Assembly (NCBI GenBank): GCA_964596735.1
Contig: CAZQVF010000001.1
Location: forward strand, 74,135 to 138,134
Source: an uncultured Gammaproteobacteria bacterium
GTDB lineage: Bacteria; Patescibacteriota; Patescibacteriia; UBA2591; UBA6264
Direction of reading: 5' to 3'
Length of the DNA: 64,000 bases
Shown here: positions 34,041 through 57,864 of the stretch, in pieces
Position numbering within the stretch: the stretch's first letter is position 1
How the letters are laid out: each line of letters starts with the position of its first letter
Notes under the pieces: generated by a model
What the model saw: the letters and a program-made list of their open reading frames with translations, nothing else
The model's database searches: none
Told to the model about the DNA's origin: nothing
Made by a program: the position numbers and the translations under genes

Positions 34041-34057
34041 TAAGATATTTTAATTAT

Positions 34058-34902
34058 ATGGTAATTACAAAAAAACGAAAAAACGTTCAAGCCTGGTCAA
34101 AACAAATGGCACAAAATAGAAAAAAAGGAGACCACCAACTGCTCCTAGTATAAGCGAGCAGAAGATTTATGAAAAATTTTTAAAACAAGCTTTAAAAAAT
34201 AAAGAAAACCCTAAGGTTTTAATTTTAGGAGTTACCCCAGAGCTTCGCAATATTGCCTTAAAAAATAATTGCCAGGTTGTGTCTGTTGACATTAGTCGGG
34301 AAATAATAAAAGCAATGAAACCCTCAATAAAATATAAAGGGTTAAAAAGAGAAAAGATTATTAATGCTAACTGGCTTGCTGTTTCTTTTCCAAAGAATAG
34401 TTTTGATTTGGTAATGGGAGATGCACCCTTAACCAATCTTCTTTCTATTCATGATCTTAGAAAATTATTATTTAAAGTCCGGAGAGTATTAAAGCCAAGG
34501 GGTTTTTTCTTAATAAGAGAACTCATTCATTTATCAAATAAAAAAGCTCCATTTAAAAAAATAGTTTCTGATTATCGGAAGAATAAGATAAAATGGGAAG
34601 ATTTTTTTATGGACCTTAGATTTTATACGTTTTTTAATAAAGCCTATAATCCAAAAAATAACCTTCTTTCCGCTGATAAGATTTTTCAGGAAATTGAAAA
34701 AAAATATAAGCAAGGCGAGCTGACAAAGAAAGAATATCAAAGAATTATGATTCTTGAAAATCGAATGAAGAATTTAGTTTTATTTAAAGAAAAATTTATG
34801 AAATTAATCAAAGAAAATTTTTCCATTATTTCTATTAAAACAGATAAAGAATTTAAATTCTGTCAATATTTACCAATTTATTTGTTGAAAAATAGAAAGT
34901 AA
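34058..34902 (+). pseudogene. array paralog 5, frameshifted (or -1 frameshift-dependent) copy
   Basis: The N-terminus (MVITKKRKNVQAWSKQMAQN) reads in one frame to a TAA at 34151. The family-conserved continuation (RRPPTAPSISEQKIYEKF...VLILGVTPELRNIAL...) lies in the -1 frame, beginning inside a GAAAAAAAGG A7 run at 34120-34126. The track only reports the GTG-started C-terminal 207-aa piece. Confidence 0.7.
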
Positions 34903-34903
34903 T

Positions 34904-35749: not shown

Positions 35750-35750
35750 T

Positions 35751-36638: not shown

Positions 36639-36641
36639 AAT

Positions 36642-37499: not shown

Positions 37500-37502
37500 A
37501 AT

Positions 37503-40071: not shown

Positions 40072-40110
40072 AAATAAAGAAAAAGCCGTTTTGTAGCGGT
40101 TTGAAAATTT

Positions 40111-40965
40111 ATGACAAAAAAAATTAAAAAACAAAATAAAAAAACTTTTAATCCAGACTGGAAAAAATGGTCTGATTTTTGGAATAAAATTAAACCACCC
40201 TGGAAGCCTTCGGTTCAAGAAATAAGATTTATAAAATCAAGACTTAAAGTATTGGTTAAAAACAATCAACCACGAGCCCTGATTCAAGGCGCAACCCCAG
40301 ACTTTCGTGATTTATTAGCTGATTTAGGTTATCAGGTCTGGCTTTTAGACATAAACAAAGAAATGGTTGATGGTACGAGGCTGGTGATGAAGAATAAAAA
40401 TCCTAAAGAAAAAGTAAAGATTGGGAATTGGCTTGCCAAACCATTTAAAACAAACTATTTTGATGCTGTCTTAGCCGACGAAACTCTTGATAACTTAGCT
40501 TTAAAAACATATAACCAGTATTTTCAAAATATAAAAACGTTTCTTAAACCAGGTGGATATTTTATTTACGGGGCTTATTGCATGCCAGCCCGGACTCGCC
40601 AAATAAGTTTTGATGAGTTAGCTAAATTATATAATAAAGACCCGAAATTTTTTAAAAAATGGGAGAATAAATGTTATCTTTGGCACTGGGTGCAAGATAA
40701 ATCTAAAATCTTTGATCGTCGAAAATGGCAATATGATTTTACCTATTTTGATAACGAAATTCAAAAACTATATGATCAAGGGAAAATATCCAAGCAAGGC
40801 TTAAAAGATTTACAATATAAGATGGGGGCATATCAGAGTGTTCATCTATACCGCAAAGATTTAGAGATTCGACTTAAAAAGTATTTTAAAATTTTAAACA
40901 TTTGGGTTGTTCCAAAGATGAAGTATCATAATAAGATAGTTTACGTTTTAAAAGTTCAAAAATAA
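40111..40965 (+). CDS. array paralog 12 (LGATPE MTase-like)
   Basis: ALIQGATPDFRDLLADL, WLLDINKEMVDG, GNWLAKPFKTNYFDAVLADETLDNL, FLKPGGYFIYGA. Confidence 0.85.
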   Translation: MTKKIKKQNKKTFNPDWKKWSDFWNKIKPPWKPSVQEIRFIKSRLKVLVKNNQPRALIQGATPDFRDLLADLGYQVWLLDINKEMVDGTRLVMKNKNPKEKVKIGNWLAKPFKTNYFDAVLADETLDNLALKTYNQYFQNIKTFLKPGGYFIYGAYCMPARTRQISFDELAKLYNKDPKFFKKWENKCYLWHWVQDKSKIFDRRKWQYDFTYFDNEIQKLYDQGKISKQGLKDLQYKMGAYQSVHLYRKDLEIRLKKYFKILNIWVVPKMKYHNKIVYVLKVQK

Positions 40966-41019
40966 GAACCCTTCGCTACGCTCAGGAACCTTGAAATTAA
41001 AACTTTATTTTATAAATAT
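40964..41019 (+). promoter_or_regulatory. conserved CTTGAAATTAAA promoter-like element (internal to the array)
   Basis: AAGAACCCTTCGCTACGCTCAGGAACCTTGAAATTAAAACTTTATTTTATAAAT in the 74-nt gap between paralogs 12 and 13; same architecture as the copies at 1879, 4839 and 19449. Confidence 0.55.
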
Positions 41020-41039
41020 TAAGGTAGTTTAATTATAAT

Positions 41040-41891
41040 ATGACTAAAAAAGAATCAACTAGCAAAAAATTTATAGATCCCTGGAAAACAATGGCAAATA
41101 ATTGGAATCTATTTTGTTCTCCTGGTCGACCTTCATCAAGAAATATCTTAGATTATGAAAAACTTTTTCAATCTACAGTTAAAAAAAGAAAAAATCCCAA
41201 GATATTAATTTTAGGGGCAACGCCAGAACTGAGAGACCTTTTAAATAAATTTAAAAAAGCAGAAGTATGTATTTGTGATATTAATATAGAAATGATTTTA
41301 GCCATGACAGAATTGATGAAAAAGAAAAAAGCAGTGGAAAGGGAAATATGGATGAAAGCCAATTGGAAAGACATGCCTTTAAAGAAAGATTATTATGATG
41401 TTATCTTGGGCGATTACATTACCAGCGCTTTTCCCTTAAAAGATCACGCAGAATTATTTAATAAATTAAGATCAGTTTTAAATAAAAATGGTTGTTTTGT
41501 TAGCAGGATCTTTTTTTACAATCCAGATGCAGTAGAAGATTTTAATCAAGTAGCGGATAAATATTTAAACAAAAAAGTAACCCCTAGGACAATAACTGAT
41601 TTTTGGATGGAGGCATATTTCCGCGGTCCGTATAGAAAAGGGGGAGTTCTTTCAGGCAAGAGATTTAAAGAAAAAATGAATATTTACGTAAAAAAGAACC
41701 CCAAAATCAAGCCACTTTTCAATAAACTTGATCAAATATTATTGCCATATAATAAGGATTATAATTTTTGTAGCTTAAAACAAACTGAAAAATCATTAAA
41801 GAGATATTTTGTAATCAAAGAAAAATTACCAGAGATTAACACCACCTTAAGCAAAAATACATTTATATATAAATTATCTCCAAAGAAATAA
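41040..41891 (+). CDS. array paralog 13 (LGATPE MTase-like)
   Basis: ILILGATPELRDLLNKF, CICDINIEMILAM, ANWKDMPLKKDYYDVILGDYITSAF, hydrophobic core block after it. Confidence 0.85.
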   Translation: MTKKESTSKKFIDPWKTMANNWNLFCSPGRPSSRNILDYEKLFQSTVKKRKNPKILILGATPELRDLLNKFKKAEVCICDINIEMILAMTELMKKKKAVEREIWMKANWKDMPLKKDYYDVILGDYITSAFPLKDHAELFNKLRSVLNKNGCFVSRIFFYNPDAVEDFNQVADKYLNKKVTPRTITDFWMEAYFRGPYRKGGVLSGKRFKEKMNIYVKKNPKIKPLFNKLDQILLPYNKDYNFCSLKQTEKSLKRYFVIKEKLPEINTTLSKNTFIYKLSPKK

Positions 41892-41892
41892 T

Positions 41893-42744
41893 ATGACAAA
41901 ACAAATTCATGGCACAAAATATTGGACAGATTTAGCTCAATGGTGGCGAAAGGTTGCTCCACCGGTTAGACCATCAAAGTCGGATATTAAGATTTATGAG
42001 AGATTTTTAAAAAAGGTAATTAAGAACAAGAAACAACCCAAAATTTTAATTTTAGGAGCGACACCGGAAATGCGAGATTTAGCCGCTAAGTATAGAGCGG
42101 AAACAACTGTTTGTGATATTAGTTTGGAAATGATAATAGCTATGATTCAGTTGATGACTCATAAAAAGGCTGGCCAAAAAGAAGTTTGGGTTAAAGCAAG
42201 TTGGGTGACAGTACCATTGAAACATAATTATTACGATGTGATTTTAGCAGATGGGGTGATATGTAATATCCCCTGGTCAGAAGTAAATCAATGGTGGAAA
42301 CATTTAAATCAATTACTTAAACCAAAGGGTGTTTTTATCACCCGAGCCTTCTGTTTTACCTCTAGAAATGAGATTGATAAAAGTTTGAATAATCTTATTA
42401 AGAAGATTTTAAAAAAGAGAAATCCTTTAGCAACCGATTTTGGTCAATTGAAAATAACTTTAGAAATCGCAAGTTATAATTCTAAAACTAGAACGGGCAG
42501 TAATGCCAAGTATAGAGAATTATTTTTTAAACATATTGAGAATTTTTCAGTTTTTCAAACAAAGGCAAACAAGATTTATCGTCAACTTGTTAAGATTTAT
42601 CCACCTAAGCCAGTTAAAGTTTGGCGAATACCAACAAGAGCTCAGAGAGAAAAAGAAATTAAAAAGTATTTTAAGATTATTTTTGGTATTCCTTCTCCAT
42701 CTTTTCCAACTATACCGACAATTTATTTATTAAAGAAAAAATAA
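41893..42744 (+). CDS. array paralog 14 (LGATPE MTase-like)
   Basis: ILILGATPEMRDLAAKY, TVCDISLEMIIAM, ASWVTVPLKHNYYDVILADGVICNI, LLKPKGVFITRAF. Confidence 0.85.
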   Translation: MTKQIHGTKYWTDLAQWWRKVAPPVRPSKSDIKIYERFLKKVIKNKKQPKILILGATPEMRDLAAKYRAETTVCDISLEMIIAMIQLMTHKKAGQKEVWVKASWVTVPLKHNYYDVILADGVICNIPWSEVNQWWKHLNQLLKPKGVFITRAFCFTSRNEIDKSLNNLIKKILKKRNPLATDFGQLKITLEIASYNSKTRTGSNAKYRELFFKHIENFSVFQTKANKIYRQLVKIYPPKPVKVWRIPTRAQREKEIKKYFKIIFGIPSPSFPTIPTIYLLKKK

Positions 42745-42745
42745 C

Positions 42746-43621
42746 ATGCCTAAGAAAAAACAAGAAAAAAGATTTATTGCCCCCTGGAAAGCCTATGCTG
42801 CTCGTTGGCAAAAATACTGTACTCCACCAGGCCGGCCATCTAAACAAGCCATGGCCATGTATCGCAAATTTGCCAAACAATCTTTTTCTAATTTAAAACG
42901 CAAACCACGAACCTTGGTTTTAGGAGCGACTCCAGAGGCAAGAGATGTTTTAGTTGGGCTTAAAGCAGAGGTCAGTATTATTGATTTTAATATGGAAATG
43001 ATTTTAGCCATGACAGAATTGGTTAAAAAGAAAAATCCCAATGAGATTATAGTTAAAGCAAATTGGCTTAATATGCCCTTCCCCCCTAATTATTATGACG
43101 CTGTGTTAGGGGATCTTGTTTTATGCAATGTGCCCGGACCATTACAAGCCAGGTTTTTAAAAGAAGTCAAAAGAGTTTTAAAACCGAAAGGATATTTTAT
43201 CACTAAAATGCATGTTATTCCTAACGATTGGCAGTTTAAACCCATTGATTGGGTTTTGGATAAATATGCTAAAATCCCTGTTTGTAAAAATACAGCTATT
43301 GAACTATTTGGGTTTCTTCATAACACCATTTATCAGCCAAAAACCCATATAATGGATATTAGCCTAATTAGAAAAGGATTAACAAAGTATTGGAAAAAAG
43401 GAAAGTATAAACATCCTAGTGCCAAGATTAGTAAATTACTTAATCATATTTGGGAGATGTTTAAGCCCATGGACAAAACATGGTGTACAGGCTATGAAAA
43501 AGAAATTAGCAAACAGGTTTCCCAATATTTTAAAATCCGAAAGAAAATAGTTTTAAACGATTGTTATTTCCGTGAGATTGATGAATCATTTCCTTTTTGG
43601 GTTTGCCAAGTAAAAAAATAA
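42746..43621 (+). CDS. array paralog 15 (LGATPE MTase-like)
   Basis: TLVLGATPEARDVLVGL, SIIDFNMEMILAM, ANWLNMPFPPNYYDAVLGDLVLCNV, VLKPKGYFITK. Confidence 0.85.
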   Translation: MPKKKQEKRFIAPWKAYAARWQKYCTPPGRPSKQAMAMYRKFAKQSFSNLKRKPRTLVLGATPEARDVLVGLKAEVSIIDFNMEMILAMTELVKKKNPNEIIVKANWLNMPFPPNYYDAVLGDLVLCNVPGPLQARFLKEVKRVLKPKGYFITKMHVIPNDWQFKPIDWVLDKYAKIPVCKNTAIELFGFLHNTIYQPKTHIMDISLIRKGLTKYWKKGKYKHPSAKISKLLNHIWEMFKPMDKTWCTGYEKEISKQVSQYFKIRKKIVLNDCYFREIDESFPFWVCQVKK

Positions 43622-43622
43622 T

Positions 43623-44465
43623 ATGTTAAAACCCCATGAGCTAAATAGATCTTATTGGATGCGAAGTGCTGAGATTTGGCGCAAGTTAAAGCCGCCAGAA
43701 AGGCCCAGTAAAGAGGAAATGGGGATTTATGAAAAACACCTTAAAGAAATATTGCAGTTTAAAGGTAATAAATTAAGAGCTGTTATTCTTGGAGCTACTC
43801 CAGAAATTCGAGATTTATTAGCCAGATATAAAGTTTCAGACGTTACTATTGTTGATGTTAATCCTAATATGGTTCGGGCGATGAAAGAATTACTTAAAAT
43901 CTCAAAGGGCAGAGAGAAAATAGTCATTGCTAGTTGGTTAAATACGGGGTTGCCGTCTCATAAATATGATGTGGTTTTCTGTGATCACGGTACAGCCCAC
44001 ATCAAGTTTCTTCAGTGGCCTAAATTTTTTAAGGAACAAAAAAGATTTTTAAAAAAGAATGGCTTTGTTTTACATAATATCGTTACTCGGCCATTTAAGG
44101 AGGGCATCACGGTAAGTGATTTAGTTAAAATTTATAAGAAAAATAAATTAAAATTTTCTCGTCTTGATAAATTTTATTATAATTATTTAGTTTTTCTAAA
44201 ATTGAAAGATGTGAATGGAAAACACCACAAAGATTTAGGAGTTCTTGATAAAAATTTAAAAAGTTTTATCAATAAAAAGGTGATTGATAAAAATGATTAT
44301 CAAAAATTAAAGACTCCATGGGAAGATGCAAAAATTGCTCTTCCTCCGCAGGAGGTTGTTGATGAGATTTTTCAGAAATTTTTTAATTTAAAAACATTAG
44401 AACATGGATCAAAACACCCGATTTATAGTTGTCATCAAATATACTTTGGTCAAGTAAAAAAATAA
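43623..44465 (+). CDS. array paralog 16 (LGATPE MTase-like)
   Basis: AVILGATPEIRDLLARY, TIVDVNPNMVRAM, ASWLNTGLPSHKYDVVFCDHGTAHI, FLKKNGFVLHN. Confidence 0.85.
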   Translation: MLKPHELNRSYWMRSAEIWRKLKPPERPSKEEMGIYEKHLKEILQFKGNKLRAVILGATPEIRDLLARYKVSDVTIVDVNPNMVRAMKELLKISKGREKIVIASWLNTGLPSHKYDVVFCDHGTAHIKFLQWPKFFKEQKRFLKKNGFVLHNIVTRPFKEGITVSDLVKIYKKNKLKFSRLDKFYYNYLVFLKLKDVNGKHHKDLGVLDKNLKSFINKKVIDKNDYQKLKTPWEDAKIALPPQEVVDEIFQKFFNLKTLEHGSKHPIYSCHQIYFGQVKK

Positions 44466-44470
44466 AGTCT

Positions 44471-44764
44471 ATGAAAATTAAAATACCACCTGTTTCCATT
44501 GACACTGACAAACTAATTAAGCGCTGTGGTTATGCTGAGTTAAGAAGAAAAACAGGGGAGATAAGTTATGTTCGTCGTTTACGTGGTTATCAATACCCAC
44601 GCTTTCATGTTTATATTGAAAATGGATATTTTAATCTTCACTTAGATCAAAAGGCCCCTTGTTATCAAGGGTCTTCAGCTCACGCCGGAGAATATGAGGG
44701 AGAAATTTTAGTAAAAGAAAAAGAAAGAATAAAAGAGATCATTAATAAGTATAGAAATGAATAA
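44471..44764 (+). CDS. hypothetical 97-aa protein, unrelated insert within the array
   Basis: MKIKIPPVSIDTDKLIKRCGYAEL...RFHVYIENGYFNLHLDQKAPCYQGSSAHAGEYEG; none of the paralog blocks are present. The track calls it from 44429, overlapping the upstream gene; the ATG at 44471 was preferred. Confidence 0.4.
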   Translation: MKIKIPPVSIDTDKLIKRCGYAELRRKTGEISYVRRLRGYQYPRFHVYIENGYFNLHLDQKAPCYQGSSAHAGEYEGEILVKEKERIKEIINKYRNE

Positions 44765-46427
44765 AAAAGGTTGGACAAAAAGATGGAAAAATGTTTCTGA
44801 ATGGTGGGGAAAGTTAAATTCACCCTGGACCCCTTCTTTGGGAGAGTATAAAATCTATGAAAAGTTTTTGAAAAAGACAACAAATTTTAAAGATAAAGAT
44901 AGAAAAATGCTAATTTTAGGAGCGACGGCATTGTTAAGAGAGCTGGGGTATAAGTATGGCTATCAAATCACCTTGATTGATATAAATCAAGAAATGGTTA
45001 AAGATCAAACTAGATTTTTAGGCCTTAAAATTCCTAAAGAAAAAGTGGTTATTGGTGACTGGTTAGAAATGGATAAAATTTTTAAAAACCAACAATTTGA
45101 CGTTATCGCAGCAGATCATTCAGTTATTAATGTTAAATTTAAAAATTGGCCCAAACTTTATAAAAATATACAAAATCTTTTAAAACCTGATGGTTCGGTT
45201 CTTTGGGCAACAACTGTTTATAATCATCGAAAGCATGGTCAAGTAAAAGACTTGGTAAAAAGTTATCGGCCCAATAAATCAGAAAAAGACAGATTTATTA
45301 GAATTTATAAATTATTTGGTAATCCAAAATTTCATGATAAAAACCATGGTTTTCATTTTGGCCAAGCTGACAAGGAAATAGGAAAATTAGCCAAGAAAAA
45401 AAGTTTTTCCAAAGAGCAAATCAATGAAATGAAGTTGAATTTAGGAAACTGGACTTCAGTAATATTACAAAAAAAGAAATTTGAAGATTTTACAAAAAAA
45501 TATTTTAAAATAATTGATAATCAGAAAGATAAAAGTCATCATTTCTATAAATATCAGCAACTTTATCTTTTAAAGCACAAAAAATCACCTAAGAGAAGTG
45601 TTTCATGGAAAACTATTGCCGAAGTCTGGCCTGATTTAAAGCCGCCTTTAAGACCCTCAAAAGGAGAAATGAGGATTTATGAGAGATATTTAAAACAGAT
45701 TATTAAACAAAAGAAAGGTAAACTAACCGCCTTATTATTTGGTTTAACCACAGAAATCAGGGATATGTTGGCAAAATATGGGGTATTTGTCACCATGATT
45801 GATGTTAATCCGGAAATGGTTAAAGTGACAGAATCTTTATGTCAACAGAAAAACAGAAAAGAAAAAGTGGTTATTGATGACTGGTTAAAGTTTAATCTTA
45901 ATAAAAAGTTTGACATTATTTTGGGAGACCATGTTTTTGGTAATGTAGAGTTTAAAAAACAGCAGAGGCTTTGGAGGCAAATCAAAAAACATTTGAAATC
46001 CGACGGGTATTTGATTACAGACGTTCATTTAAGAGCTTTAAACAAGAAAATAGGTTTAAAGCAGTTTATTGAAAAATATAGAAGAAGTAAAATATTAAAA
46101 AAGAACCGAGAAGAAAAATGGTATTGGCTTTATTCTTTGGTTTATAACAATCCTGTTTTCTTTAAAAGGAAAATTAAATCAGTTTTATGGCCCTCAGTTG
46201 AAGAATTATTAAGGCAAACCAAGAAAAGAAATATTGATTTAAGTATGGCAGAAGCAAGAGAGATTGCTGATGACGTTCACATAGACAGGCCTTGTTGGTT
46301 TATGCTTCCGATGAAAAAGGAATTTGAAAAAGAATTAAAAAAATATTTTACAATGATTGATTCAGATATTAATAGAAAACACTCGGTTTATCGCTGTTAT
46401 CGCATTTATTTTGCTAAGTCAAAATAA
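44757..46427 (+). CDS. array paralogs 17+18 fused into one 556-aa two-domain protein
   Basis: Both halves carry the full block set. N-half: WKNVSEWWGKLNSPWTPSLGEYKIYEKF...MLILGATALLRELGYKY..TLIDINQEMVKD..GDWLEMDKIFKNQQFDVIAADHSVINV..LLKPDGSVLWA. C-half: WKTIAEVWPDLKPPLRPSKGEMRIYERY..ALLFGLTTEIRDMLAKY..TMIDVNPEMVKV..DDWLKFNLNKKFDIILGDHVFGNV..HLKSDGYLITD. Confidence 0.85.
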   Translation: MNKKGWTKRWKNVSEWWGKLNSPWTPSLGEYKIYEKFLKKTTNFKDKDRKMLILGATALLRELGYKYGYQITLIDINQEMVKDQTRFLGLKIPKEKVVIGDWLEMDKIFKNQQFDVIAADHSVINVKFKNWPKLYKNIQNLLKPDGSVLWATTVYNHRKHGQVKDLVKSYRPNKSEKDRFIRIYKLFGNPKFHDKNHGFHFGQADKEIGKLAKKKSFSKEQINEMKLNLGNWTSVILQKKKFEDFTKKYFKIIDNQKDKSHHFYKYQQLYLLKHKKSPKRSVSWKTIAEVWPDLKPPLRPSKGEMRIYERYLKQIIKQKKGKLTALLFGLTTEIRDMLAKYGVFVTMIDVNPEMVKVTESLCQQKNRKEKVVIDDWLKFNLNKKFDIILGDHVFGNVEFKKQQRLWRQIKKHLKSDGYLITDVHLRALNKKIGLKQFIEKYRRSKILKKNREEKWYWLYSLVYNNPVFFKRKIKSVLWPSVEELLRQTKKRNIDLSMAEAREIADDVHIDRPCWFMLPMKKEFEKELKKYFTMIDSDINRKHSVYRCYRIYFAKSK

Positions 46428-46432
46428 ATATC

Positions 46433-46461
46433 TCGACAAATATCTTATTTTTACATATAAT
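46433..46461 (+). promoter_or_regulatory. sigma70-type promoter (TCGACA-N17-TATAAT)
   Basis: TCGACA, a 17-nt spacer, then TATAAT in the 66-nt gap before the Nif3-like gene. Confidence 0.5.
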
Positions 46462-46493
46462 TAAGAACAAGATTTATTTTTAACTATATATTT

Positions 46494-47444
46494 ATGACTA
46501 TTGAACAAATTTACAATTTAGCCATTAAAATGGGCATGAAAAGCGATTTAAGAGGGGAGAGACAGGTAAAAAAAATGTTAACCCATTTAAAGAAAAGGTA
46601 TGAAAAAATGCCAGGAAAACAAAAGAAAGAATTTGACAAAGAAAAATTAACAAATCCATATTCTGATACCCGCATATTAAACAAAACAAAAAAACCAATT
46701 AAAAAGATTTTAACTGGTATTGATATGGAAGTAAGTGAACTACTTTTAGCCGAACAATTAGGTGGTGTTGACTTGATTTTAGCTCACCACCCCAGAGGCA
46801 TAGGATTAACCGGATTAGATGATGTGATGAAACTTCAGGCAGATGTTTTAAATCTTTATGGTGTGCCAATTAATATTGCTGAAAGTCTGGTTCGTTTAAG
46901 AAGAGGAGAGGTTAGTCGTTCAATTTCTTCGGCTAATCATAACCGAGTCGTTGATGCAGCTAAACTATTAAAAACAGGATATATGTGCATGCATACCCCA
47001 GCTGATAATTGTGTGGCTAGTTTTTTAAACAAATTGATTAAAAAGAAAAAACCAGAATATGTAGAAGATCTATTAGATCTATTAAAAACCATTCCTGAAT
47101 ATCAACAAGCCATGAAAATAGGAGCTGGACCAAGACTTTTTGCTGGTAAAGAAATAAATCACTGCGGCAAAATTGCTTTAACAGAAATCACTGGCGGAAC
47201 AGAGGGGTCTTCAAAGGTTTATGAAAAAATGAGTCAGGCAGGAATAGGCACAGTAGTGGCCATGCACATGAGTGAAAAAAATCGCAAAGAAGCAGAAAAA
47301 GCCCACATCAATGTCGTTATTGCCGGTCATATTGCTTCAGACTCCATTGGCATGAACCTAATATTAGATGAATTAGCCAAGAAAAAAATAGAAATCATCC
47401 CATGTTCTGGATTAATTAGAGTGGAGAGGTTTAAGAAAAGATAA
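46494..47444 (+). CDS. NIF3/YqfO-family (GTP cyclohydrolase 1 type 2-like) dinuclear-metal protein
   Basis: KKILTGIDMEVSELLLAEQLGGVDLILAHHPRG resembles the NIF3 N-terminal block ending in HHP; distal GHIASDS histidine block; the stop is 2 nt before the next paralog's ATG. Confidence 0.5.
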   Translation: MTIEQIYNLAIKMGMKSDLRGERQVKKMLTHLKKRYEKMPGKQKKEFDKEKLTNPYSDTRILNKTKKPIKKILTGIDMEVSELLLAEQLGGVDLILAHHPRGIGLTGLDDVMKLQADVLNLYGVPINIAESLVRLRRGEVSRSISSANHNRVVDAAKLLKTGYMCMHTPADNCVASFLNKLIKKKKPEYVEDLLDLLKTIPEYQQAMKIGAGPRLFAGKEINHCGKIALTEITGGTEGSSKVYEKMSQAGIGTVVAMHMSEKNRKEAEKAHINVVIAGHIASDSIGMNLILDELAKKKIEIIPCSGLIRVERFKKR

Positions 47445-47446
47445 AT

Positions 47447-48289
47447 ATGTCAGTACAACAGAATAAAAAAGACATGTGGTTTGAAAGTATTGCCCAGCAA
47501 TGGTCTATTTATGCGCCACCAGTCACTCCTTCTAAGTCAGAATGCCAGATTATTAAAAAGTGTATTCTTAATAAAAAAAGGAAAAATCTTCGGATATTAG
47601 TTTTAGGGGCAACGCCAGAATTTCGTGATTTAGCCCATGAACTAAAAGCAGAAGTTACTTGTGTAGACGTTTCTGTGTCAATGCTTCAGGGGTTGGTTCA
47701 TTTAATGAAACAAAAAAATAAAGCTGATCAGGAGATATGGTTTAAAGCCGATTGGCTAACCGTTCCCTTGGCAGAGAATTATTTTGATTTTGTTTTGGGT
47801 GATTTTGTTATTGTTAATTTGCCGATTAATCTGCAGCCAAAGTTTTTTTCAAAGATTAAGCATATTTTGAGGAAGAATGGGTTTTTTATCACTCGTCACC
47901 TTTTACCATTGGACTCATTTGAGCCTTTTCCTGAGCTTATTGGCCAAGCATTAAAGAATAAGAGTTTTAACAAGAGAATGATAAACAGTTTTTCATTAGA
48001 TGTTTTGCAGTCTGTTTATGAAAAAAGAACAAAGGTGATGAAAGTAAAAAAGGTTTATTCTGAGTTTAAAAAACTTATAATTCAGGAAAAAAATAAACAG
48101 AGAAGAAAAAGGATTAAAGATTTGTTTGAAATTTATCAAGAATATTATCCTCTTGGTAAAGCTTGGTGGGGCTTATTAAAAAATCCAGGAGAAAGAGTAA
48201 TGAAGAAATATTTTAAAATTCAAGATATTAGATATGGACAGGACCATGACCGTGTGGATTATTGTCCAATTTATTTTTTAAGAAAATAA
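47447..48289 (+). CDS. array paralog 19 (LGATPE MTase-like)
   Basis: ILVLGATPEFRDLAHEL, TCVDVSVSMLQGL, ADWLTVPLAENYFDFVLGDFVIVNL, ILRKNGFFITR, ...IYFLRK. Confidence 0.85.
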   Translation: MSVQQNKKDMWFESIAQQWSIYAPPVTPSKSECQIIKKCILNKKRKNLRILVLGATPEFRDLAHELKAEVTCVDVSVSMLQGLVHLMKQKNKADQEIWFKADWLTVPLAENYFDFVLGDFVIVNLPINLQPKFFSKIKHILRKNGFFITRHLLPLDSFEPFPELIGQALKNKSFNKRMINSFSLDVLQSVYEKRTKVMKVKKVYSEFKKLIIQEKNKQRRKRIKDLFEIYQEYYPLGKAWWGLLKNPGERVMKKYFKIQDIRYGQDHDRVDYCPIYFLRK

Positions 48290-48290
48290 A

Positions 48291-49208
48291 ATGAAATATC
48301 CCAGTTATCTTAATTTAAGTGAAAAAGAACTTCATTCAAGGATTAAAAAAGCCAATCAATTACTTAGTCCATGTCAGGTTTGTCCGCGAAAATGCGGAGC
48401 TGATCGGATTGAAAATGAAAAAGGTTATTGTTGTTTGGGAAATAAAGCAGTAGTTTTTAGTTTTAATCCTGGTTTTGGCGAAGAAAAAGCCTTAGTCGGT
48501 CAATTTGGTTCAGGAGCAATCAACTTTAATTTTTGTAATCTGTCTTGTGCCTATTGCCAGACTTATGATATTAGTCAGCTACAAAGAGGAAGGACGGTTC
48601 CAGGAAAAGAAGTAGGTGATAAGGAACTGGCAAAGATAATGTTAAAATTACAAAAATCAGGTTGTCATAATATAAACTTGATTAATCCCACTTCTCAAGT
48701 ACCTCAAATTTTAGCCAGTTTACCCCAGGCTATTAAAGGGGGATTAAAAATACCACTTATTTACAACACTAATGCCTATGATTCTGTAAAAACTCTAAAA
48801 TTACTATCCGGAATCATTGATATTTATTTGCCAGATTTTAAATATTCAGATGAAAAAACGGCGGTTAAATATTCACAAGCATCTGGTTATTTTGAAATAG
48901 CTAAGAAATCAATAAAAGAAATGCATAGACAAGTGGGTAATTTAGAAATTGGTACGGACAATTTAATGAAAAAAGGACTTTTGGTCCGTCATCTTATTCT
49001 CCCTAATAATTTAGCCGGCTCAGAAAGGGTTTTAAAATTTTTAGCTAAGAGAATTTCTCCCAATACCTTTGTTAATCTTATGAATCGGTATAATCCTTGC
49101 TGGCAAGCAAAAAACTTCCCAGAAATTAATCGTTACATTACCACAGAAGAGTATAAGAAAGTGGTTGATTTGGCTAAAAATTATAATTTAAAGTGGTTTA
49201 CTGAATAG
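48291..49208 (+). CDS. radical SAM enzyme, PflX-like (pyruvate formate-lyase activase homolog family, COG1313-like)
   Basis: N-terminal C..CPR.C cluster (CQVCPRKCGADRIENEKGYCC), canonical radical-SAM CX3CX2C (CNLSCAYCQ), and a glycine-rich downstream block. The ATG is 1 nt after the stop of paralog 19. Confidence 0.75.
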   Translation: MKYPSYLNLSEKELHSRIKKANQLLSPCQVCPRKCGADRIENEKGYCCLGNKAVVFSFNPGFGEEKALVGQFGSGAINFNFCNLSCAYCQTYDISQLQRGRTVPGKEVGDKELAKIMLKLQKSGCHNINLINPTSQVPQILASLPQAIKGGLKIPLIYNTNAYDSVKTLKLLSGIIDIYLPDFKYSDEKTAVKYSQASGYFEIAKKSIKEMHRQVGNLEIGTDNLMKKGLLVRHLILPNNLAGSERVLKFLAKRISPNTFVNLMNRYNPCWQAKNFPEINRYITTEEYKKVVDLAKNYNLKWFTE

Positions 49209-52947: not shown

Positions 52948-55900
52948 ATGATTAAATGGTTTAAAGAAATATCAATTAAAGATGTCCCTCAGGTTGGCGG
53001 AAAAAACGCTTCTTTGGGAGAAATGTATCGTCGTTTGACTAATAAGGGGGTAAAAATTCCAAATGGTTTTGCCACAACAGCAAAAGATTATTGGTATGTT
53101 TTAGAAAGCTCTGGTTTAAAAAAACAAATAAAAGAAATTTTAAAAGATTTAGACGTAAAAGACATAAAGAATTTGGCCAGGAAAGGGAAACAAATTAGAA
53201 ATTTAACCATTCAAGCACCTTTACCTAAAGATTTTGAAAAAAAGATTATTCTAGCCTATAGAAAATTATCTCGTCAATATGGAGTTAAAGCTGTGGACGT
53301 AGCCGTCCGCAGTTCAGCCACAGCAGAAGACATGCCCACAGCCAGTTTTGCCGGACAAATGGAAACTTATCTTAACATCAAAGGTGAAAAGAATCTTTTA
53401 AAAGCAGTAAAAAAATGTATTGCTTCTCTTTATACTGACCGAGCCATTGTTTATCGTGAAGAAAAAGGATTTAACCATCTTGATGTCGCCCTTTCTGTTT
53501 GTGTTCAAAAAATGATTCGTTCTGACCTGGCTTGTTCGGGAGTAATTTTTTCTTGTCATACAGAATCAGGATTTTTTGACGTTTCAGTGATTACTTCTTC
53601 CTGGGGTTTAGGTGAAAATATTGTCCAAGGAAAGGTTAGTCCAGATGAGTTTCTGGTTTATGAGCCATTAGTAGATAAGTTTAGGCCAATCCTTGGAAAA
53701 CACTTGGGAGCAAAAGAATGGAAAATGATTTACAACCCTGGAGGAAAAGAGCCAGTCAAGAATATTCGGACGACAAAAAAAGAACAAAACAAATTTACCT
53801 TGTCTGATGATGAGATTTTACAACTAGGTAAATATTCAGTTATTATTGAAAAATATTATAGTCGCTCAATGGATATGGAGTGGGCCAAAGACGGCAAAGA
53901 TAAACAACTCTATATTTTACAGGCCCGTCCAGAAACAGTGCAGTCCCAGAAGTCTTTAGACGTTTTAGAAAAATATATTTTATTAGACAAACAGACAAAG
54001 CGAATTCCTTCTCATGGTAAAATTGCCAAGATTTCTTTAAAAGATAAAATTATTGTTTCCGGGGTAGCCGTTGGGTCAAGGATTGCTAATGGTCAGGCTA
54101 ATATTATTGAGAGTGTTAAAGATATTTCTAAATTTAAACCAGGACAGATTTTGGTTACAGAAATGACTGATCCAGATTGGGTGCCAATTATGAAAATTGC
54201 CAAAGCTATTGTTACTAATGCTGGGGGAAGAACATGTTTTACTGGCGAAACAAATGTTTTGACCAATAAAGGATTTTTATCTATAAAAGAAATTGTTGAG
54301 AAACACAAAGAAGAGGATTATAAAGTTTTATCTTTGAACAAAGAAAGTATGAATTTTGAATGGAAAAAAGTTATTGACGGGATGAAAAGAAGGTCTAAAC
54401 CGATTTCTGTAAGTATATCTCAAACCGGACGAATGAAAGGAAACACTTTAGGGGTTACTCCTGATCATAAATTTCTGACTTTTGAAAATAGAAAGCTTAT
54501 TTCTAAAGAAATAAGAAATCTAATAAAAGAGAATCAGTTTATTTTAAGTGCAGATAAAATTCCTATGCCCGAAAGACAACATAAATTGAATCCGTTTTTA
54601 GGCTATTTACTTGGTGGAATTAGCAGTGACGGACATATTTATTTAAATGGAACACATGGAGAGGTCCAGTTTATTCAGAAAAATACACCTGATAAAGCGG
54701 ATTTTATTAAAAAGATGAATGACTGTTTAAAAGAAGTTTTTGATTATTCCTTTCATATTTCTTATAAAAAACCCTTTGAAGGTATTATTAGAGGCAAAAA
54801 GTTTAAAAGTGAAAACGCAGTTGCTTATAGGTGTTATAGCAAGAAGATTGCTTCTAGGTTGTTTCATGATCAAAGCAAATTAACAGAATCATTGTTAACA
54901 GCATCAGACGATTTTGTTTATAATTTTTTAGCTGGCATGATTGATGGCGATGGCGCTTATAATGAAAAATCAAACAGAATTAATATATATTGTTCTAAAG
55001 AATATTTATTACAAGCTATAACAGTGGCCTGCCTTAGGTTAAATATATCTTTTCAAGTAACCTCAAACCGTAATATTCATAACATTCAGATAGTTAGTAA
55101 AGTAGAAGAAATTTTTAAGTATACAACTCGCATAAAAGGTAAATATAATCGTTTAACTTGTGGTACTAAATTTTTCAGTGCCAAGCAACTATTAGAAGAC
55201 ATAAAAGATAAAATTAATTATAAAGGAAAAATTGGGTCGTATATTGAGAAAAATTTGTTAATTGATTACAAGAAAATAGAGAATTATTTTATTCCAATGA
55301 TAGCCAGGGAACAGGCTAATCATGAGTTAACAAGGATTATCAATTCAGATTTGAAAATGTTGAGAGTCAATAATTCCGATTCTATTGAAAAACAGAACGT
55401 TTATAATATTACAGTAGAAGATAATCATAATTATGTTGTTTTTAGCGGTAGATATACACCAGTTGTAGTAAATAATTGCCATGCCGCAATTATTTCTCGA
55501 GAGCTTGGCATCCCCTGTGTGGTCGGAACCAGCAAGGCAACCAAAAAGGTAAAACAAGGACAAAAAATAACCGTTTCTTGTGCCGAGGGAGAAACCGCTC
55601 ATGTTTATCCAGGATTATTGGATTTTAAGATTAAAAAGACAAAGATTAAGGGATTAAAAAGACCAAAGACAAAAATTATGATGAACATTGGTGAGCCTGA
55701 ACAAGCTTTTGGGTTTTCTTTTATTCCTAATGATGGAGTGGGCTTAGCGCGGGAAGAATTTATTATCAGTGATTATATTAAAATTCATCCCTTAGCCCTG
55801 CTTTACTATTCTCAATTAAAAGACAAAAAAGTAAAAAAACAGATTGATGATATAGTTACTGGTTATCCTAGTAAAGTTCAATTTTATGTTGATAAATTAT

Positions 55901-56625
55901 CAGAAGGTATTGCCCGGATTGCGGCTGCCTTTTACCCTAAACAAGTAATTGTTCGTTTTTCAGACTTTAAAACAAATGAATATGCTAATTTAATTGGCGG
56001 GCAAGAATTTGAACCAAAAGAGCCAAACCCAATGATTGGTTGGCGTGGAGCCAGCCGTTATTACGGCATTGGTTTTGAAGAGGCTTTTCAGCTAGAATGC
56101 CAGGCAATTAAAAAAGTTAGAGAGATAATGGGACTAGACAATGTTATTGTTATGGTCCCGTTTTGCCGAACCATTGAAGAAGGAAAAAAGGTTTTAAAAA
56201 TTATTGATAAAGCTGGATTACGTCGACCAAAAAAGAATATTAAGCCTCTTAAGGTTTATGTTATGTGTGAAATACCTTCCAATGTTGTTTTAGCAGATGA
56301 ATTTGCCAAGATTTTTGATGGATTTTCAATTGGTTCAAATGATTTAACTCAACTAACCCTTGGTTTAGACAGAGATTCAAATCTAGTAGCTCATATTTTC
56401 GATGAAAGAAATGAAGCAGTAAAAAGATTAATCAGTCAGGTAATAAAAATAGCTCATAAACATAAAAGGAAAATAGGAATTTGCGGGCAAGGACCAAGTG
56501 ATTTCCCAGAATTTGCTAGATTTTTAGTAAAAGAGGGAATTGATTCAATGTCTTTAACTCCAGATACAGTAATTAAAACGACCATAGATATTTTAAAAAC
56601 AGAAAAGAAGTTAAAGAAAAAATAA
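52948..56625 (+). CDS. ppsA: phosphoenolpyruvate synthase (pyruvate, water dikinase), intein-containing
   Basis: N-terminal VGGKNASLGEM; the conserved phosphohistidine block GGRT|CHAAIISRELGIPCVVG is split by a 414-aa insertion; C-terminal PEP-utilising TIM-barrel blocks (GIGFEEAF, CGQGPSD). 1225 aa versus about 790 aa for an uninterrupted enzyme. Confidence 0.9.
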   Translation: MIKWFKEISIKDVPQVGGKNASLGEMYRRLTNKGVKIPNGFATTAKDYWYVLESSGLKKQIKEILKDLDVKDIKNLARKGKQIRNLTIQAPLPKDFEKKIILAYRKLSRQYGVKAVDVAVRSSATAEDMPTASFAGQMETYLNIKGEKNLLKAVKKCIASLYTDRAIVYREEKGFNHLDVALSVCVQKMIRSDLACSGVIFSCHTESGFFDVSVITSSWGLGENIVQGKVSPDEFLVYEPLVDKFRPILGKHLGAKEWKMIYNPGGKEPVKNIRTTKKEQNKFTLSDDEILQLGKYSVIIEKYYSRSMDMEWAKDGKDKQLYILQARPETVQSQKSLDVLEKYILLDKQTKRIPSHGKIAKISLKDKIIVSGVAVGSRIANGQANIIESVKDISKFKPGQILVTEMTDPDWVPIMKIAKAIVTNAGGRTCFTGETNVLTNKGFLSIKEIVEKHKEEDYKVLSLNKESMNFEWKKVIDGMKRRSKPISVSISQTGRMKGNTLGVTPDHKFLTFENRKLISKEIRNLIKENQFILSADKIPMPERQHKLNPFLGYLLGGISSDGHIYLNGTHGEVQFIQKNTPDKADFIKKMNDCLKEVFDYSFHISYKKPFEGIIRGKKFKSENAVAYRCYSKKIASRLFHDQSKLTESLLTASDDFVYNFLAGMIDGDGAYNEKSNRINIYCSKEYLLQAITVACLRLNISFQVTSNRNIHNIQIVSKVEEIFKYTTRIKGKYNRLTCGTKFFSAKQLLEDIKDKINYKGKIGSYIEKNLLIDYKKIENYFIPMIAREQANHELTRIINSDLKMLRVNNSDSIEKQNVYNITVEDNHNYVVFSGRYTPVVVNNCHAAIISRELGIPCVVGTSKATKKVKQGQKITVSCAEGETAHVYPGLLDFKIKKTKIKGLKRPKTKIMMNIGEPEQAFGFSFIPNDGVGLAREEFIISDYIKIHPLALLYYSQLKDKKVKKQIDDIVTGYPSKVQFYVDKLSEGIARIAAAFYPKQVIVRFSDFKTNEYANLIGGQEFEPKEPNPMIGWRGASRYYGIGFEEAFQLECQAIKKVREIMGLDNVIVMVPFCRTIEEGKKVLKIIDKAGLRRPKKNIKPLKVYVMCEIPSNVVLADEFAKIFDGFSIGSNDLTQLTLGLDRDSNLVAHIFDERNEAVKRLISQVIKIAHKHKRKIGICGQGPSDFPEFARFLVKEGIDSMSLTPDTVIKTTIDILKTEKKLKKK
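54235..55476 (+). mobile_element. intein with LAGLIDADG homing-endonuclease domain inside ppsA
   Basis: Begins CFTGETNVLT (Cys1) directly after GGRT and ends ...VVVNN followed by Cys+1 (CHAAI). Contains two LAGLIDADG-like motifs (LGYLLGGISSDGHIYL and FLAGMIDGDGAYN). In frame, with no stops. Confidence 0.8.
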
Positions 56626-56627
56626 AC

Positions 56628-56656
56628 TTGACAAAAACTTTATTTTAAGCTAAAAT
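56628..56656 (+). promoter_or_regulatory. sigma70-type promoter (TTGACA-N17-TAAAAT)
   Basis: Exact TTGACA, a 17-nt spacer, then TAAAAT directly after the ppsA stop. Confidence 0.55.
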
Positions 56657-56679
56657 ATAATTAATAAAATAAACGAAGG

Positions 56680-56787
56680 AGGCGAAAATTGAATAATTTC
56701 AAAGAAACAGAGTTTGTAAGGTTAGGTAAAAGTGTAATGGAAATGAACAATTGTTCTTTTCCTGAAGTAGCTGAGCAATTGATTTTC
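56680..56787 (+). CDS. putative 35-aa small ORF (TTG start) with a perfect SD
   Basis: AAGGAGG 7 nt upstream of TTG; encodes MNNFKETEFVRLGKSVMEMNNCSFPEVAEQLIFAG. The stop codon lies in the loop of a perfect 8-bp hairpin (TCGCAGGA-tgagg-TCCTGCGA, 56777-56797). Confidence 0.3.
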
Positions 56788-56860
56788 GCAGGATGAGGTC
56801 CTGCGAAATACAGAAGGGATAACGTTGCTGAAATAGACCGTAAAAACAAAGGAGAAACGA

Positions 56861-57127
56861 ATGGCCTATGAATTAAACTGTAATGGAGAAGGTGGACCCA
56901 GGCAAAAGAGATTAAAGATTTGGTTAGAGAAGAATAATCGGATCAAGGTTGAGTGCACAGAGGAGGGGGTTATTATAACCAACATCTGTTGCAAAGGTTT
57001 ACGGGTAAGGCCTAATAGAGACGGATTACTTAAAACGATTCGCAAGGGAAAATCGACTGGTCTATTGACCAAAGGACAAAATGTTTTCATCGAAGGAAAT
57101 ACGTTCCAGGTCCAACCGGTCGCTTAA
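56861..57127 (+). CDS. hypothetical 88-aa Cys-rich protein
   Basis: AAAGGAG SD 7 nt upstream of the ATG; the sequence has paired cysteines (NCNGEGG, VECTEEG, ICCKG); followed by a 12-bp perfect hairpin (GTCCCTGACCAG-catagt-CTGGTCAGGGAC). Confidence 0.45.
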   Translation: MAYELNCNGEGGPRQKRLKIWLEKNNRIKVECTEEGVIITNICCKGLRVRPNRDGLLKTIRKGKSTGLLTKGQNVFIEGNTFQVQPVA

Positions 57128-57236
57128 TAAAGCGGGCGAGACACATTTTAAATGTCCCTGACCAGCATAGTCTGGTCAGGGACAATCCATTCAACTTGAT
57201 TTATTAGATTTAATTTGTTAATATTTTTAATTATAC

Positions 57237-57326
<90 letters not shown>

Positions 57327-57336
57327 TAAATTTAAT

Positions 57337-57864
57337 ATGTCAACAATCATCATTTTAATAATTCTTTTTTTCTTTCTTTTTTGTGCAATAACCCTATTCT
57401 GGGCGACTCTGTCTTTAGCTCCTTGGGTGCCTTCCAGAAAGAGAGATTTAAAAAGGATTTTTAAAATAGCAGATTTAAAACCTAATGATACCTTCTATGA
57501 CCTAGGTTGTGGTAATGGTAGAATTATTTTTTACGCCAATAGGAATTTTCAAGTAAAATCAATTGGTATAGAATTAGCTCTACCTCTTTTTTTAATCTGT
57601 AAGATTCGTCAGATTTTCCATTCAAACGAAAACATCATTTTTAAGTATAAAAGTTTATTTAAAGAAGATATGTCCAAAGCAGACGTCATTTATGTATTTG
57701 CCCTGCCCAAGTCTCTTGAAAAAAAATTAAAACAAAAATTAGAAAGAGAATTAAAGCCAGGAGCAAGGGTAATCTCATATTGTTTTTCTATTAAAGGACT
57801 GAAGCCTAAAATTATAGATAAACCAGATCAAAAAGCAAACTCAATTTATTTGTATCAGTTTTAA
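57337..57864 (+). CDS. membrane-anchored class I SAM-dependent methyltransferase (canonical GxGxG)
   Basis: N-terminal TM then FYDLGCGNGRIIFYA (motif I) and ADVIYVFALP; start set at the ATG at 57337, since the track ORF 57265 runs through the tRNA-Ser. Confidence 0.55.
   Translation: MSTIIILIILFFFLFCAITLFWATLSLAPWVPSRKRDLKRIFKIADLKPNDTFYDLGCGNGRIIFYANRNFQVKSIGIELALPLFLICKIRQIFHSNENIIFKYKSLFKEDMSKADVIYVFALPKSLEKKLKQKLERELKPGARVISYCFSIKGLKPKIIDKPDQKANSIYLYQF

Follow-up and report, generated by a model that had tools for sequence, protein, structure and literature searches.

Host Gene and Insertion Point

How can a PEP synthase (PpsA) work when 414 aa stand within its phosphohistidine motif, and is the insert still a mobile element? 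These questions are raised by ppsA in the window (the whole stretch of 64,000 nucleotides analyzed here), for which the preliminary description proposed a LAGLIDADG intein at 54235..55476. The open reading frame and the junctions (GGRT/CFTGE…VVVNN/CHAAI, slashes marking splice junctions; GGRT/C...NN/CHAAIISRELGIP on the C-terminal side) place the in-frame insert there, exact to the base, together with the Cys1, C-terminal Asn, and Cys+1 that had been claimed (Cys1...TPVVVNN, then Cys-His). The parts of the host gene are:

52948..56625, + strand: ppsA precursor ORF, 1225 aa and stop, with PPDK_N, PEP-utilizers, and PEP-utilizers_C domains (NF005057, 1150 bits)
52948..54234, + strand: N-extein, 429 aa, ending in ...TNAGGRT, collinear with the intein-free orthologue L082
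54235..55476, + strand: intein, 414 aa (Cys1...Asn414), 1242 bp
55477..55482, + strand: Cys+1 (TGC), then the codon for the PpsA phosphohistidine (CAT); GGRT-CH-AAI in the intein-free orthologue
55477..56625, + strand: C-extein, 382 aa and stop

The His after Cys+1 is the phospho-carrier, as established by the enzymology of PpsA and PPDK. When the insert is taken out of the precursor, the remaining 811 aa match PpsA end to end (NF005057, 1150 bits; TIGR01418, 1117 bits).

The gene is a single uninterrupted ORF with no frameshift or stop. Its 1225-aa precursor is identical to the public protein P0165, and the same protein recurs on three independent contigs, for which two JGI samples are documented. 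A frameshifted fusion with a separate gene, which had been named as a finding that would speak against an intein, was not borne out by this one open frame; such a fusion, like an assembly artefact, is effectively refuted by the single frame and the three contigs. We give next to no credence to the wider notion that the insert is dead or artefactual (a fused gene or a chimeric contig) and ppsA non-functional. It could appeal only to the unusual penultimate Asn and F:4 Asn described below, whereas the frame is intact, the identical protein recurs on independent contigs, the splice-junction residues are all in place, the extein dN/dS is low (0.06), and the same architecture is seen in 80/80 kept loci of the family.

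Comparison with intein-less ppsA alleles, which had been suggested as a check, yielded a syntenic relative without precisely the 1242 bp. In this orthologue (P0166; loci L081-L083) the gene order is that of the window, Cpn10-Cpn60-x-DUF4870-ppsA, at 91% nt and 95% aa identity; the 811-aa spliced product is 95% identical to P0166, and the empty L082 site reads …GTCACTAATGCCGGAGGAAGAACA/TGCCATGCGGCTATCATTTCTCGC…. The extein dN/dS between the window and L082 was 0.06 at dS 0.43, indicating that the host enzyme is under strong selection; given this selection, the intein must, to judge from sequence, splice, and do so efficiently. No co-conversion tract was evident at the junction in this comparison: with 15 mismatches in ±60 nt vs. 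9% gene-wide, mismatch density is not clearly raised, and the flanks therefore give no sign of recent homing into this lineage.

Splicing Domain

The preliminary description proposed alignment to intein HMMs as a check on blocks A, B, F, and G, and all four were located:

54235..54273, + strand: splicing block A (CFTGETNVLTNKG) with the Cys1 nucleophile (TIGR01445 match, residues 1-82; Cys1 in 72/72 same-site inteins)
54439..54480, + strand: splicing block B (GNTLGVTPDHKFLT) with Thr75 (B:7) and His78 (B:10) (T and H in 72/72)
55396..55443, + strand: splicing block F (NVYNITVEDNHNYVVF), F:4 being Asn391 and F:13 His398 (aligns with block F of Npu/Ssp DnaE)
55456..55476, + strand: splicing block G (TPVVVNN), penultimate Asn413 and terminal Asn414 (TIGR01443 match; terminal Asn in 72/72)

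Chance resemblance is excluded: both Pfam and NCBIfam matches exceeded the curated cut-offs, the models being Intein_splicing, LAGLIDADG_3, intein_Nterm, and intein_Cterm (Pfam Intein_splicing, E 4.6e-16, PF14890 with 59 bits vs. 35.8; TIGR01445, E 1.2e-10, 42 bits vs. 24.5, block B being T75-P-D-H78; TIGR01443, E 2.7e-4, 21.1 bits vs. 15.6, at the Asn414/Cys end). The hallmarks of class 1 were found, namely Cys1, the block B Thr-x-x-His, Asn414/Cys+1, the HINT fold, and a host protein restored on removal, except for the penultimate His (G:6), which is frequent in inteins but not required; Asn413 occupies this position, as had been read from the end VVVNN. The residue roles in the splicing blocks are those of PMC4031507, where the G:6 His is an "assisting" residue and splicing without it is cited (Chen, Benner & Perler 2000, J Biol Chem 275:20431, as quoted there under ref 74). 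The window intein shares with such inteins the absence of the G:6 His, and it is kept in an essential-type enzyme. It was ruled out as a class 2 intein, which has Ala1, or a class 3 intein, which has no position-1 nucleophile, a Trp-Cys-Thr motif, and Cys at F:4 (PMC4031507), because Cys1 is present and F:4 is Asn391.

Homing Endonuclease and Fold

Two LAGLIDADG motifs had been claimed, and they lie in a nested region that splits the splicing domain:

54568..55344, + strand: nested homing-endonuclease region, residues ~112-370, approximate bounds (model secondary structure, Foldseek, Pfam LAGLIDADG_3 and Hom_end)
54592..54639, + strand: LAGLIDADG motif 1 (PFLGYLLGGISSDGHI), residues 120-135, catalytic Asp132 (model helix 120-132)
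54916..54960, + strand: LAGLIDADG motif 2 (VYNFLAGMIDGDGAY), residues 228-242, catalytic Asp239 (model helix 225-239)

The motifs end in ..GGISSD132G.. and ..GMIDGD239G.., and Pfam LAGLIDADG_3 matched with E 5e-08 (PF14528, 33.5 bits vs. a cut-off of 22.5). In a model made by AlphaFold2 on a 21-sequence alignment of database proteins (pLDDT 92.1, pTM 0.91), the region consists of two LAGLIDADG alpha/beta domains and a helical C-terminal extension. The best PDB matches by Foldseek were TliVMA (7QSS, E 6e-20, TM 0.72), PI-PfuI, PI-TkoII, and PI-SceI, all endonuclease-bearing inteins, and I-DmoI matched the central domain (E about 1e-8, TM 0.62-0.71 normalised to target). In the structurally characterised inteins TliVMA/PhoVMA (7QSS, 7QST), PI-PfuI (1DQ3), PI-TkoII (2CW7), and PI-SceI (1VDE), a two-domain LAGLIDADG endonuclease likewise interrupts the HINT domain (E 6e-20 to 5e-12 by Foldseek, with TM values reaching 0.72), but they reside in other host genes at other insertion sites and show 11-19% sequence identity to the window intein. 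They also have the usual penultimate His, unlike the ppsA-site family.

The family models, fold, catalytic residues, and intein-free orthologue bear out the core of the original reading, a LAGLIDADG intein at the PEP synthase phosphohistidine motif. It is highly probable, in our view, that the allelic phosphohistidine site of a Patescibacteria PEP synthase is occupied here by a canonical class 1 intein whose nested two-motif LAGLIDADG endonuclease is probably active.

Proposed Splicing and Homing

To judge from the conserved residues, the gene would be translated as an inactive 1225-aa precursor, unable to work because its phospho-carrier loop GGRT-CH is split. Cys1, with the help of Thr75 and His78, would undergo an N-S acyl shift at Thr429-Cys430, Cys+1 would attack the thioester to give a branched intermediate, and cyclisation of Asn414 would release the intein; for want of a penultimate His, this cyclisation would have to be assisted by His398 (F:13) and by residues particular to the family. 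An S-N shift would then restore GGRT-CHAAI and the active 811-aa PpsA. The freed 414-aa protein would be a site-specific endonuclease, cutting intein-free ppsA alleles around ...GGAGGAAGAACA/TGCCATGCGGCT..., and repair templated by the intein-bearing allele would then insert the 1242 bp. The anatomy, the fold, the residue conservation, the precise presence/absence polymorphism, and the purifying selection on the extein and the endonuclease domain are shown by the analysis; splicing and cleavage themselves are inferred. By analogy with other inteins, in which such changes can slow C-terminal cleavage, the absent penultimate His and the F:4 Asn might do the same here; as a counterpoint, both changes are family-wide, and the ppsA-site family persists in a conserved enzyme.

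Inteins at the Same Site

A search of genome contigs with the intein alone gave no matches, and an intein-only protein search was unreliable (8 matches, with the window's own protein missed), whereas an alignment-based search recovered family loci. From the genome scan 80 related loci were kept, and 72 same-site inteins were aligned. In all 80 the PpsA/PPDK gene is interrupted at the same site, GGxT/[CS]HAA, by a homologous intein, the hosts being Patescibacteria, DPANN, Thermoplasmatota, Methanosarcinales, Nostoc, and Methylococcaceae. The family HMM found no further inteins in the window.

The window intein is 35-68% identical to the other 71 aligned inteins. Cys1, Thr (B:7), His (B:10), and the terminal Asn are 100% conserved in the 72; F:4 is Asn in 71/72 (it is usually Asp in inteins) and F:13 is His in 62/72. 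The penultimate residue is variable (N33, S16, C12, E4, and others), and among the 80 loci it is His in L003 only. The lack of a penultimate His and the F:4 Asn are family-wide traits of the ppsA-site inteins.

The same site has been described for prokaryotic PEPS inteins, at GG[TRM]T/CHAA, in a study that places the level separating allelic from non-allelic inteins at ~30% identity (PMC10710043, 2023). The site and homology of the window intein are those of this PEPS phosphohistidine-site allele. In the Methanotorris formicicus PpsA (WP_007044344.1), a homologous intein lies at the identical site (GGLT/C...VVFN/CHAAI), 31% identical to the window's end to end (E 2e-48) and with 247 bits to the family profile; a protein search with this intein as query gave no matches, intein-only queries being unreliable. 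Both immediately precede the Cys-His in the phospho-carrier loop, and both have Cys1, a terminal Asn, Cys+1, a nested two-motif LAGLIDADG endonuclease (409-411 vs. 414 aa), an F:4 Asn, and no penultimate His, which is replaced by Phe in Methanotorris and by Asn in the window. The one host is a methanogen and the other a Patescibacteria bacterium, and the window intein lies in a separate, mostly CPR subclade, in which its nearest member is L012 (UBA6816, 68%). By NCBI taxonomy M. formicicus belongs to the family of M. jannaschii (Methanocaldococcaceae), and its copy lends indirect support to the proposal of a same-site intein in the M. jannaschii PEP synthase; the latter, the Mja PEP intein of InBase (MJ0542, UniProt Q57962), is presumably of the same type. 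The M. jannaschii intein, with a penultimate Phe, is reportedly treated in the work of Chen and colleagues from 2000. The window intein is confirmed as an added member of a known intein allele, already known in archaea and bacteria.

Could the insert instead be a conditional switch on PpsA (e.g., redox- or stress-gated), kept for regulation and not as a selfish element? A Cys1/Cys+1 disulfide could delay splicing: the two Cys flank the catalytic His, an insert within the phospho-carrier loop leaves the precursor with no activity at all, and functional meaning has been ascribed to the way inteins cluster at functional sites (PMC4760082). Many same-site relatives, however, have Ser+1 (PPDK-type GGMT/SHAAV), so that no disulfide is possible there; close relatives manage without the intein; and an endonuclease needing an invariant target would yield insertion at conserved catalytic motifs anyway. 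We regard such a switch as very improbable beside a selfish, self-splicing element.

Residence, Transfer, and Endonuclease Activity

The claim that inteins are rare in CPR genomes is weakly true for the ppsA site: the phosphohistidine-site allele is carried by at least eight Patescibacteria species representatives and by 7 PpsA clusters among the closest 120 (one of the 7 being the window's own), and there are Patescibacteria RtcB relatives too. Among the closest Patescibacteria PpsAs, the tree shows isolated intein-bearing alleles, each with intein-free sisters around it. Cross-domain homing had also been proposed, and spread of the family across domains is supported by its taxonomic range and by conflicts between intein and extein trees, which imply that transfer has occurred; the window copy, however, sits inside a Patescibacteria clade where the two trees are congruent. 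This congruence is equally compatible with repeated homing and with a long vertical history marked by repeated losses.

Alternatively, the intein might splice but have an endonuclease that has been inactivated or domesticated; the element would then stand late in the homing cycle, persist by vertical descent only, and no longer be mobile. The congruent Patescibacteria trees point this way, as does the fact that the closest intein (L012, 68%) comes with the closest intein-bearing extein (77%), and the junction has no co-conversion tract. The GC of the window's intein is low (28.7% vs. 35%); across the family, intein GC falls short of extein GC at 39/39 loci but tracks host GC, which indicates long residence; for the same reason, we rejected low intein GC as a mark of recent foreign origin. 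On the other side, the catalytic Asp residues and the whole endonuclease domain are as conserved as the splicing domain: the motif 1 Asp is present in 70/72 inteins, the next Gly in 72/72, and the motif 2 DGDG in 72/72, and mean pairwise identity among the 72 is 45% in the endonuclease region vs. 45-51% in the HINT region. Endonuclease dN/dS was 0.08-0.26 in 7/8 measurable close pairs elsewhere in the family, similar to that of HINT, the remaining pair showing 0.60 at low divergence. Moreover, presence and absence alternate among species that share 91% nt identity, intein-bearing alleles occur singly in the PpsA tree, and the cross-domain conflicts elsewhere in the family imply past transfer. 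An inactive endonuclease is thus unlikely in our judgment, though it deserves real weight, and we prefer an endonuclease that is probably active. A 163-aa mini-intein at the same site in P0058 is consistent with the loss phase of the homing cycle.

Relatives in RtcB and at a Second PpsA Site

Homologous inteins were also seen in prokaryotic RtcB, just before the catalytic His (P0005-7, P0014, P0016, P0025, and P0038; 35-37% identity, full length, E 1e-67 to 1e-70), and further ones at a second PpsA site. The RtcB inteins share block features with the window family (VYN/VFN..DNHNY and ..V[SAK]N/C, the slash in the former separating variants) and, like the window's, immediately precede a Cys-His in which the His serves as covalent catalytic residue; they are non-allelic to it, in that the host protein is an RNA ligase, and the intein tree sets them apart as a separate clade. 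A eukaryotic RtcB intein, that of Anaeramoeba at FGST/CHG, was found by the authors who described it to cluster among PEPS inteins, apart from those prokaryotic RtcB inteins of which they knew (PMC10710043).

One tentative reading, which we hold to be somewhat less than even, is that the phosphohistidine-site family jumped non-allelically in prokaryotes (notably Patescibacteria and DPANN-type archaea) into RtcB before the catalytic His (GST/CHGAGR) and into the second PpsA site 14 residues downstream (GIP/CVV). The basis would be microhomology of the T/CH(A/G) target, and the Anaeramoeba intein would find its missing link in the prokaryotic RtcB copies. Only 12-14 of the central 24 nt are common to the rtcB and ppsA target DNA, and we therefore do not claim the same recognition site.

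Significance

For the genome itself the intein has little consequence. For annotation, it should be flagged as a selfish element, lest ppsA be taken for a pseudogene or a 1225-aa "fusion." We found no tested intein from the phylum in the literature searched, and the locus makes three modest contributions to intein biology, the first being a natural pair of intein-bearing and intein-free orthologues (91% nt) in which the empty site is defined and cleavage and homing could be assayed at once. The 72-member alignment presents the F:4 Asn and the lack of a penultimate His as stable, family-wide solutions for Asn cyclisation. The prokaryotic RtcB-site relatives bear on the question of non-allelic homing; if the non-allelic jumps are true, the window intein would belong to a family whose endonuclease tolerates target variation.

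The insert and its splicing and endonuclease domains

The ppsA gene of the window is a single uninterrupted ORF, and translation confirmed exactly the position of the in-frame insert that the preliminary description had reported in it.

52948..56625, + strand, ppsA precursor ORF, 1225 aa, uninterrupted
54235..55476, + strand, intein insert, 414 aa, by translation
Intein residues 120-132 and 225-239, LAGLIDADG helices, by model and translation

The insert starts with CFTGETNVL and finishes with TPVVVNN, in agreement with the reported lack of a penultimate His, and is flanked by ...TNAGGRT before and CHAAIISRELGIP after. The interrupted gene indeed encodes PEP synthase: the insert-free product of 811 aa matched NF005057 (1150 bits) and TIGR01418 (1117 bits) from end to end and contains the Pfam domains PPDK_N, PEP-utilizers, and PEP-utilizers_C. 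An identical 1225-aa protein (P0165) is present on three contigs, the two shown being from JGI samples 3300009105 and 3300009320.

Checked against intein HMMs, the insert alone matched the splicing models above their cut-offs [Pfam Intein_splicing, 59 bits (cut-off 35.8); NCBIfam intein_Nterm, 42 bits (24.5), and intein_Cterm, 21 bits (15.6)]. Solved mini-inteins gave weak direct matches, which aligned block A/B and block F (KQNVYNITVEDNHNY in the insert versus KQNVYDIGVERDHNF in DnaE inteins). The two LAGLIDADG motifs noted previously are supported by LAGLIDADG_3 (33.5 bits; cut-off 22.5) and by the two helices of the AlphaFold2 model, which was built on an alignment of 21 family members and is confident (pLDDT 92.1, pTM 0.91). 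The PDB entries best matched by this model were TliVMA (7QSS; E 6e-20, TM 0.72), PI-PfuI (1DQ3), PhoVMA, PI-TkoII (2CW7), and PI-SceI, all of which are endonuclease-bearing inteins; its central part matched I-DmoI, a monomeric two-domain LAGLIDADG enzyme. The insert is thus a true class-1 intein that appears to be functional; it contains a LAGLIDADG homing endonuclease and occupies the known phosphohistidine site of PEP synthase. It adds one member to an already known intein type.

The same-site intein family

A family profile made from nine trimmed relatives detected 1754 proteins at E<=1e-3 (52 of them at <1e-30) among 1.84 billion cluster representatives, and 147 loci in GTDB species representatives, 80 of which were kept. 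The intein lies at the same point of a PEP-utilizing enzyme, GGxT|[CS]HAA, in all 80 kept loci, the hosts being PpsA with Cys+1 or PPDK-like genes (GGMT|SHAAVVARG) with Ser+1. The GTDB scan placed these hosts in both domains, including Patescibacteria (Liptonbacteria, Nealsonbacteria, Paceibacter, Parcubacteria, UBA6816), archaea (DPANN archaea, Thermoplasmatota, Methanosarcinales, Hermodarchaeota), Nostoc, Scytonema, Plectonema, Methylobacter, Methylococcaceae, Thiocapsa, Babeliales, Cloacimonadota, Armatimonadota, and Blastocatellia.

Residue conservation in the 72-sequence family alignment
Cys1, Thr75 (B:7), His78 (B:10), Asn414: invariant
LAGLIDADG Asp residues: 70/72 and 72/72
Block F:4: Asn, 71/72
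Block F:13: His, 62/72
Penultimate residue: N 33, S 16, C 12, E 4, others

In inteins generally, block F:4 is most often Asp and next Cys or Trp (PMC4031507). Because F:4 Asn and a missing penultimate His are common across the family (among the kept loci only L003 has this His), these peculiarities of the window intein are family traits rather than signs of decay. The low GC content of the window intein (28.7% versus 35% in its extein) was rejected as a mark of recent arrival: in each of the 39 family loci compared (L012:3001-4239 and L057:3001-4206 among them), the intein was lower in GC than its own exteins, by 6.5 points on average, and its GC varied with that of the host over a range of 25% to 61%, so that the value in the window is uninformative on this point.

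The preliminary description had also stated that the PEP synthase of Methanocaldococcus jannaschii carries an intein at this site. P0036, which falls into the same 90% cluster as WP_007044344.1, [quoted passage not shown] has the junctions GGLT|CIEGD...PIVVFN|CHAAIISRELGT. The Methanotorris intein and that of the window align over their entire length, with 31% identity (E 2e-48). The penultimate residue is Phe in Methanotorris but Asn in the window; a penultimate Phe is also what Chen, Benner and Perler are said to have reported in 2000 for the Mja PEP intein. Taken with the M. formicicus protein, the location of prokaryotic PEPS inteins at GG[TRM]T/CHAA (PMC10710043) indirectly supports the statement, for the family Methanocaldococcaceae.

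Host lineage and intein-free orthologs

The closest exteins to that of the window are all labeled Patescibacteria or Parcubacteria. While UBA6816 (L012), whose intein is 68% and extein 77% identical, is the nearest relative to carry the intein, the nearest relatives overall have none: P0166 (811 aa, 95%), P0167 (92%), and P0168 and P0169 (both 83%). The window and the P0166 loci (L081-L083) have a common gene order, Cpn10-Cpn60-small ORF-DUF4870-ppsA, with 85-92% nucleotide identity in blocks, and the suggested comparison with intein-less alleles gave a clean 1242-bp gap at the junction, the empty site reading GGAGGAAGAACA|TGCCATGCGGCTATC. This intein occurs in 7 of the 120 closest PpsA clusters, the window's own counted, and its alleles stand singly among intein-free sisters in the extein tree of the closest of these clusters. 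P0196, a PpsA of 1363 aa with 74% identity to the extein of the window, reads GGRT-A-HAAI; with Ala in place of the +1 Cys, this site would be unable to support an intein. Its N-terminal domain contains a different LAGLIDADG-type insert.

In the interval from ppsA to a DOT1-like methyltransferase gene, L081 (8055-13427) has ~4.5 kb of extra small genes, including one for a 688-aa OLD-like TOPRIM protein; L083 (8437-11206) has the same first genes, its contig ending early. The same interval of the window (56626..57390) has only an 88-aa ORF and tRNA-Ser(GGA) at 57237..57326, and may be a variable island beside a tRNA. Elsewhere in the window, seventeen consecutive diverged paralogs of class-I SAM-dependent methyltransferases (~275-300 aa; 30-45% mutual identity, one pair 68%) occupy 30591..48289 (+), a tandem array unusually long for a small genome, with a 556-aa double-methyltransferase within it (44757..46427). 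A NIF3-like gene (46494..47444) and a radical-SAM gene (48291..49208) follow. The 1537-aa ORF at 6817..11430 (+) had no Pfam match at E<=0.01.

Transfer, selection, and relatives at other sites

Cross-domain spread, suggested previously as homing, is supported for the family, but a recent cross-domain event into the window's genome is unsupported. The window and L012 group with Patescibacteria whether the tree is built from inteins or from exteins. The inteins of Nostoc and Methylococcaceae nest among those of DPANN and Methanosarcinales, a placement not seen for their exteins; in one archaeal group the exteins are highly diverged (38% to the window), yet the inteins are near those of ordinary PpsAs; and PPDK inteins share 35-40% identity with the window intein, versus only 22-24% for the exteins. 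These conflicts support spread across domains and paralogs, qualitatively, as the trees are neighbor-joining without support values.

Between the window and its intein-free ortholog, extein dN/dS was 0.06 at dS 0.43. Judging from these sequences, PpsA of the intein-bearing lineage is under strong selection, which would require efficient splicing. In close intein pairs elsewhere in the family, endonuclease-domain dN/dS (0.08-0.26; 0.60 in one low-divergence pair) resembled that of the splicing domain, and overall conservation of the endonuclease region equals that of HINT, the splicing domain, in the 72-sequence alignment. Conserved like HINT, the endonuclease is maintained, and the simplest prediction is that it is active in homing. 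In P0058, a mini-intein of only 163 aa occupies this site, consistent with the loss stage of a homing cycle.

In three PpsA proteins from the search of cluster representatives (P0033, P0040, P0147), a related intein lies at a second site, 14 residues further along (SREMGIP|C...N|CVVATE), which is empty in the window (ELGIP-CVVG). In addition, RtcB of Patescibacteria and archaea carries same-family inteins at GST|CHGAGR, immediately ahead of the catalytic His (P0005-P0007, P0014, P0016, P0025, P0038; loci L086:1-1548, L087:467-2449). These are 35-37% identical to the window intein over the full length, closer to it than the Methanotorris PpsA intein is, and form one clade about as deep as the major PpsA-site subclades in the intein tree. 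The rtcB and ppsA target DNAs have only 12-14 of 24 central bases in common. A eukaryotic RtcB intein of Anaeramoeba, located at FGST/CHGE, had been seen to group with the PEPS inteins of prokaryotes, and microhomology-mediated non-allelic homing was proposed (PMC10710043). The link between RtcB and PEPS inteins was previously limited to this eukaryotic intein (PMC10710043), and the prokaryotic RtcB copies extend that observation.
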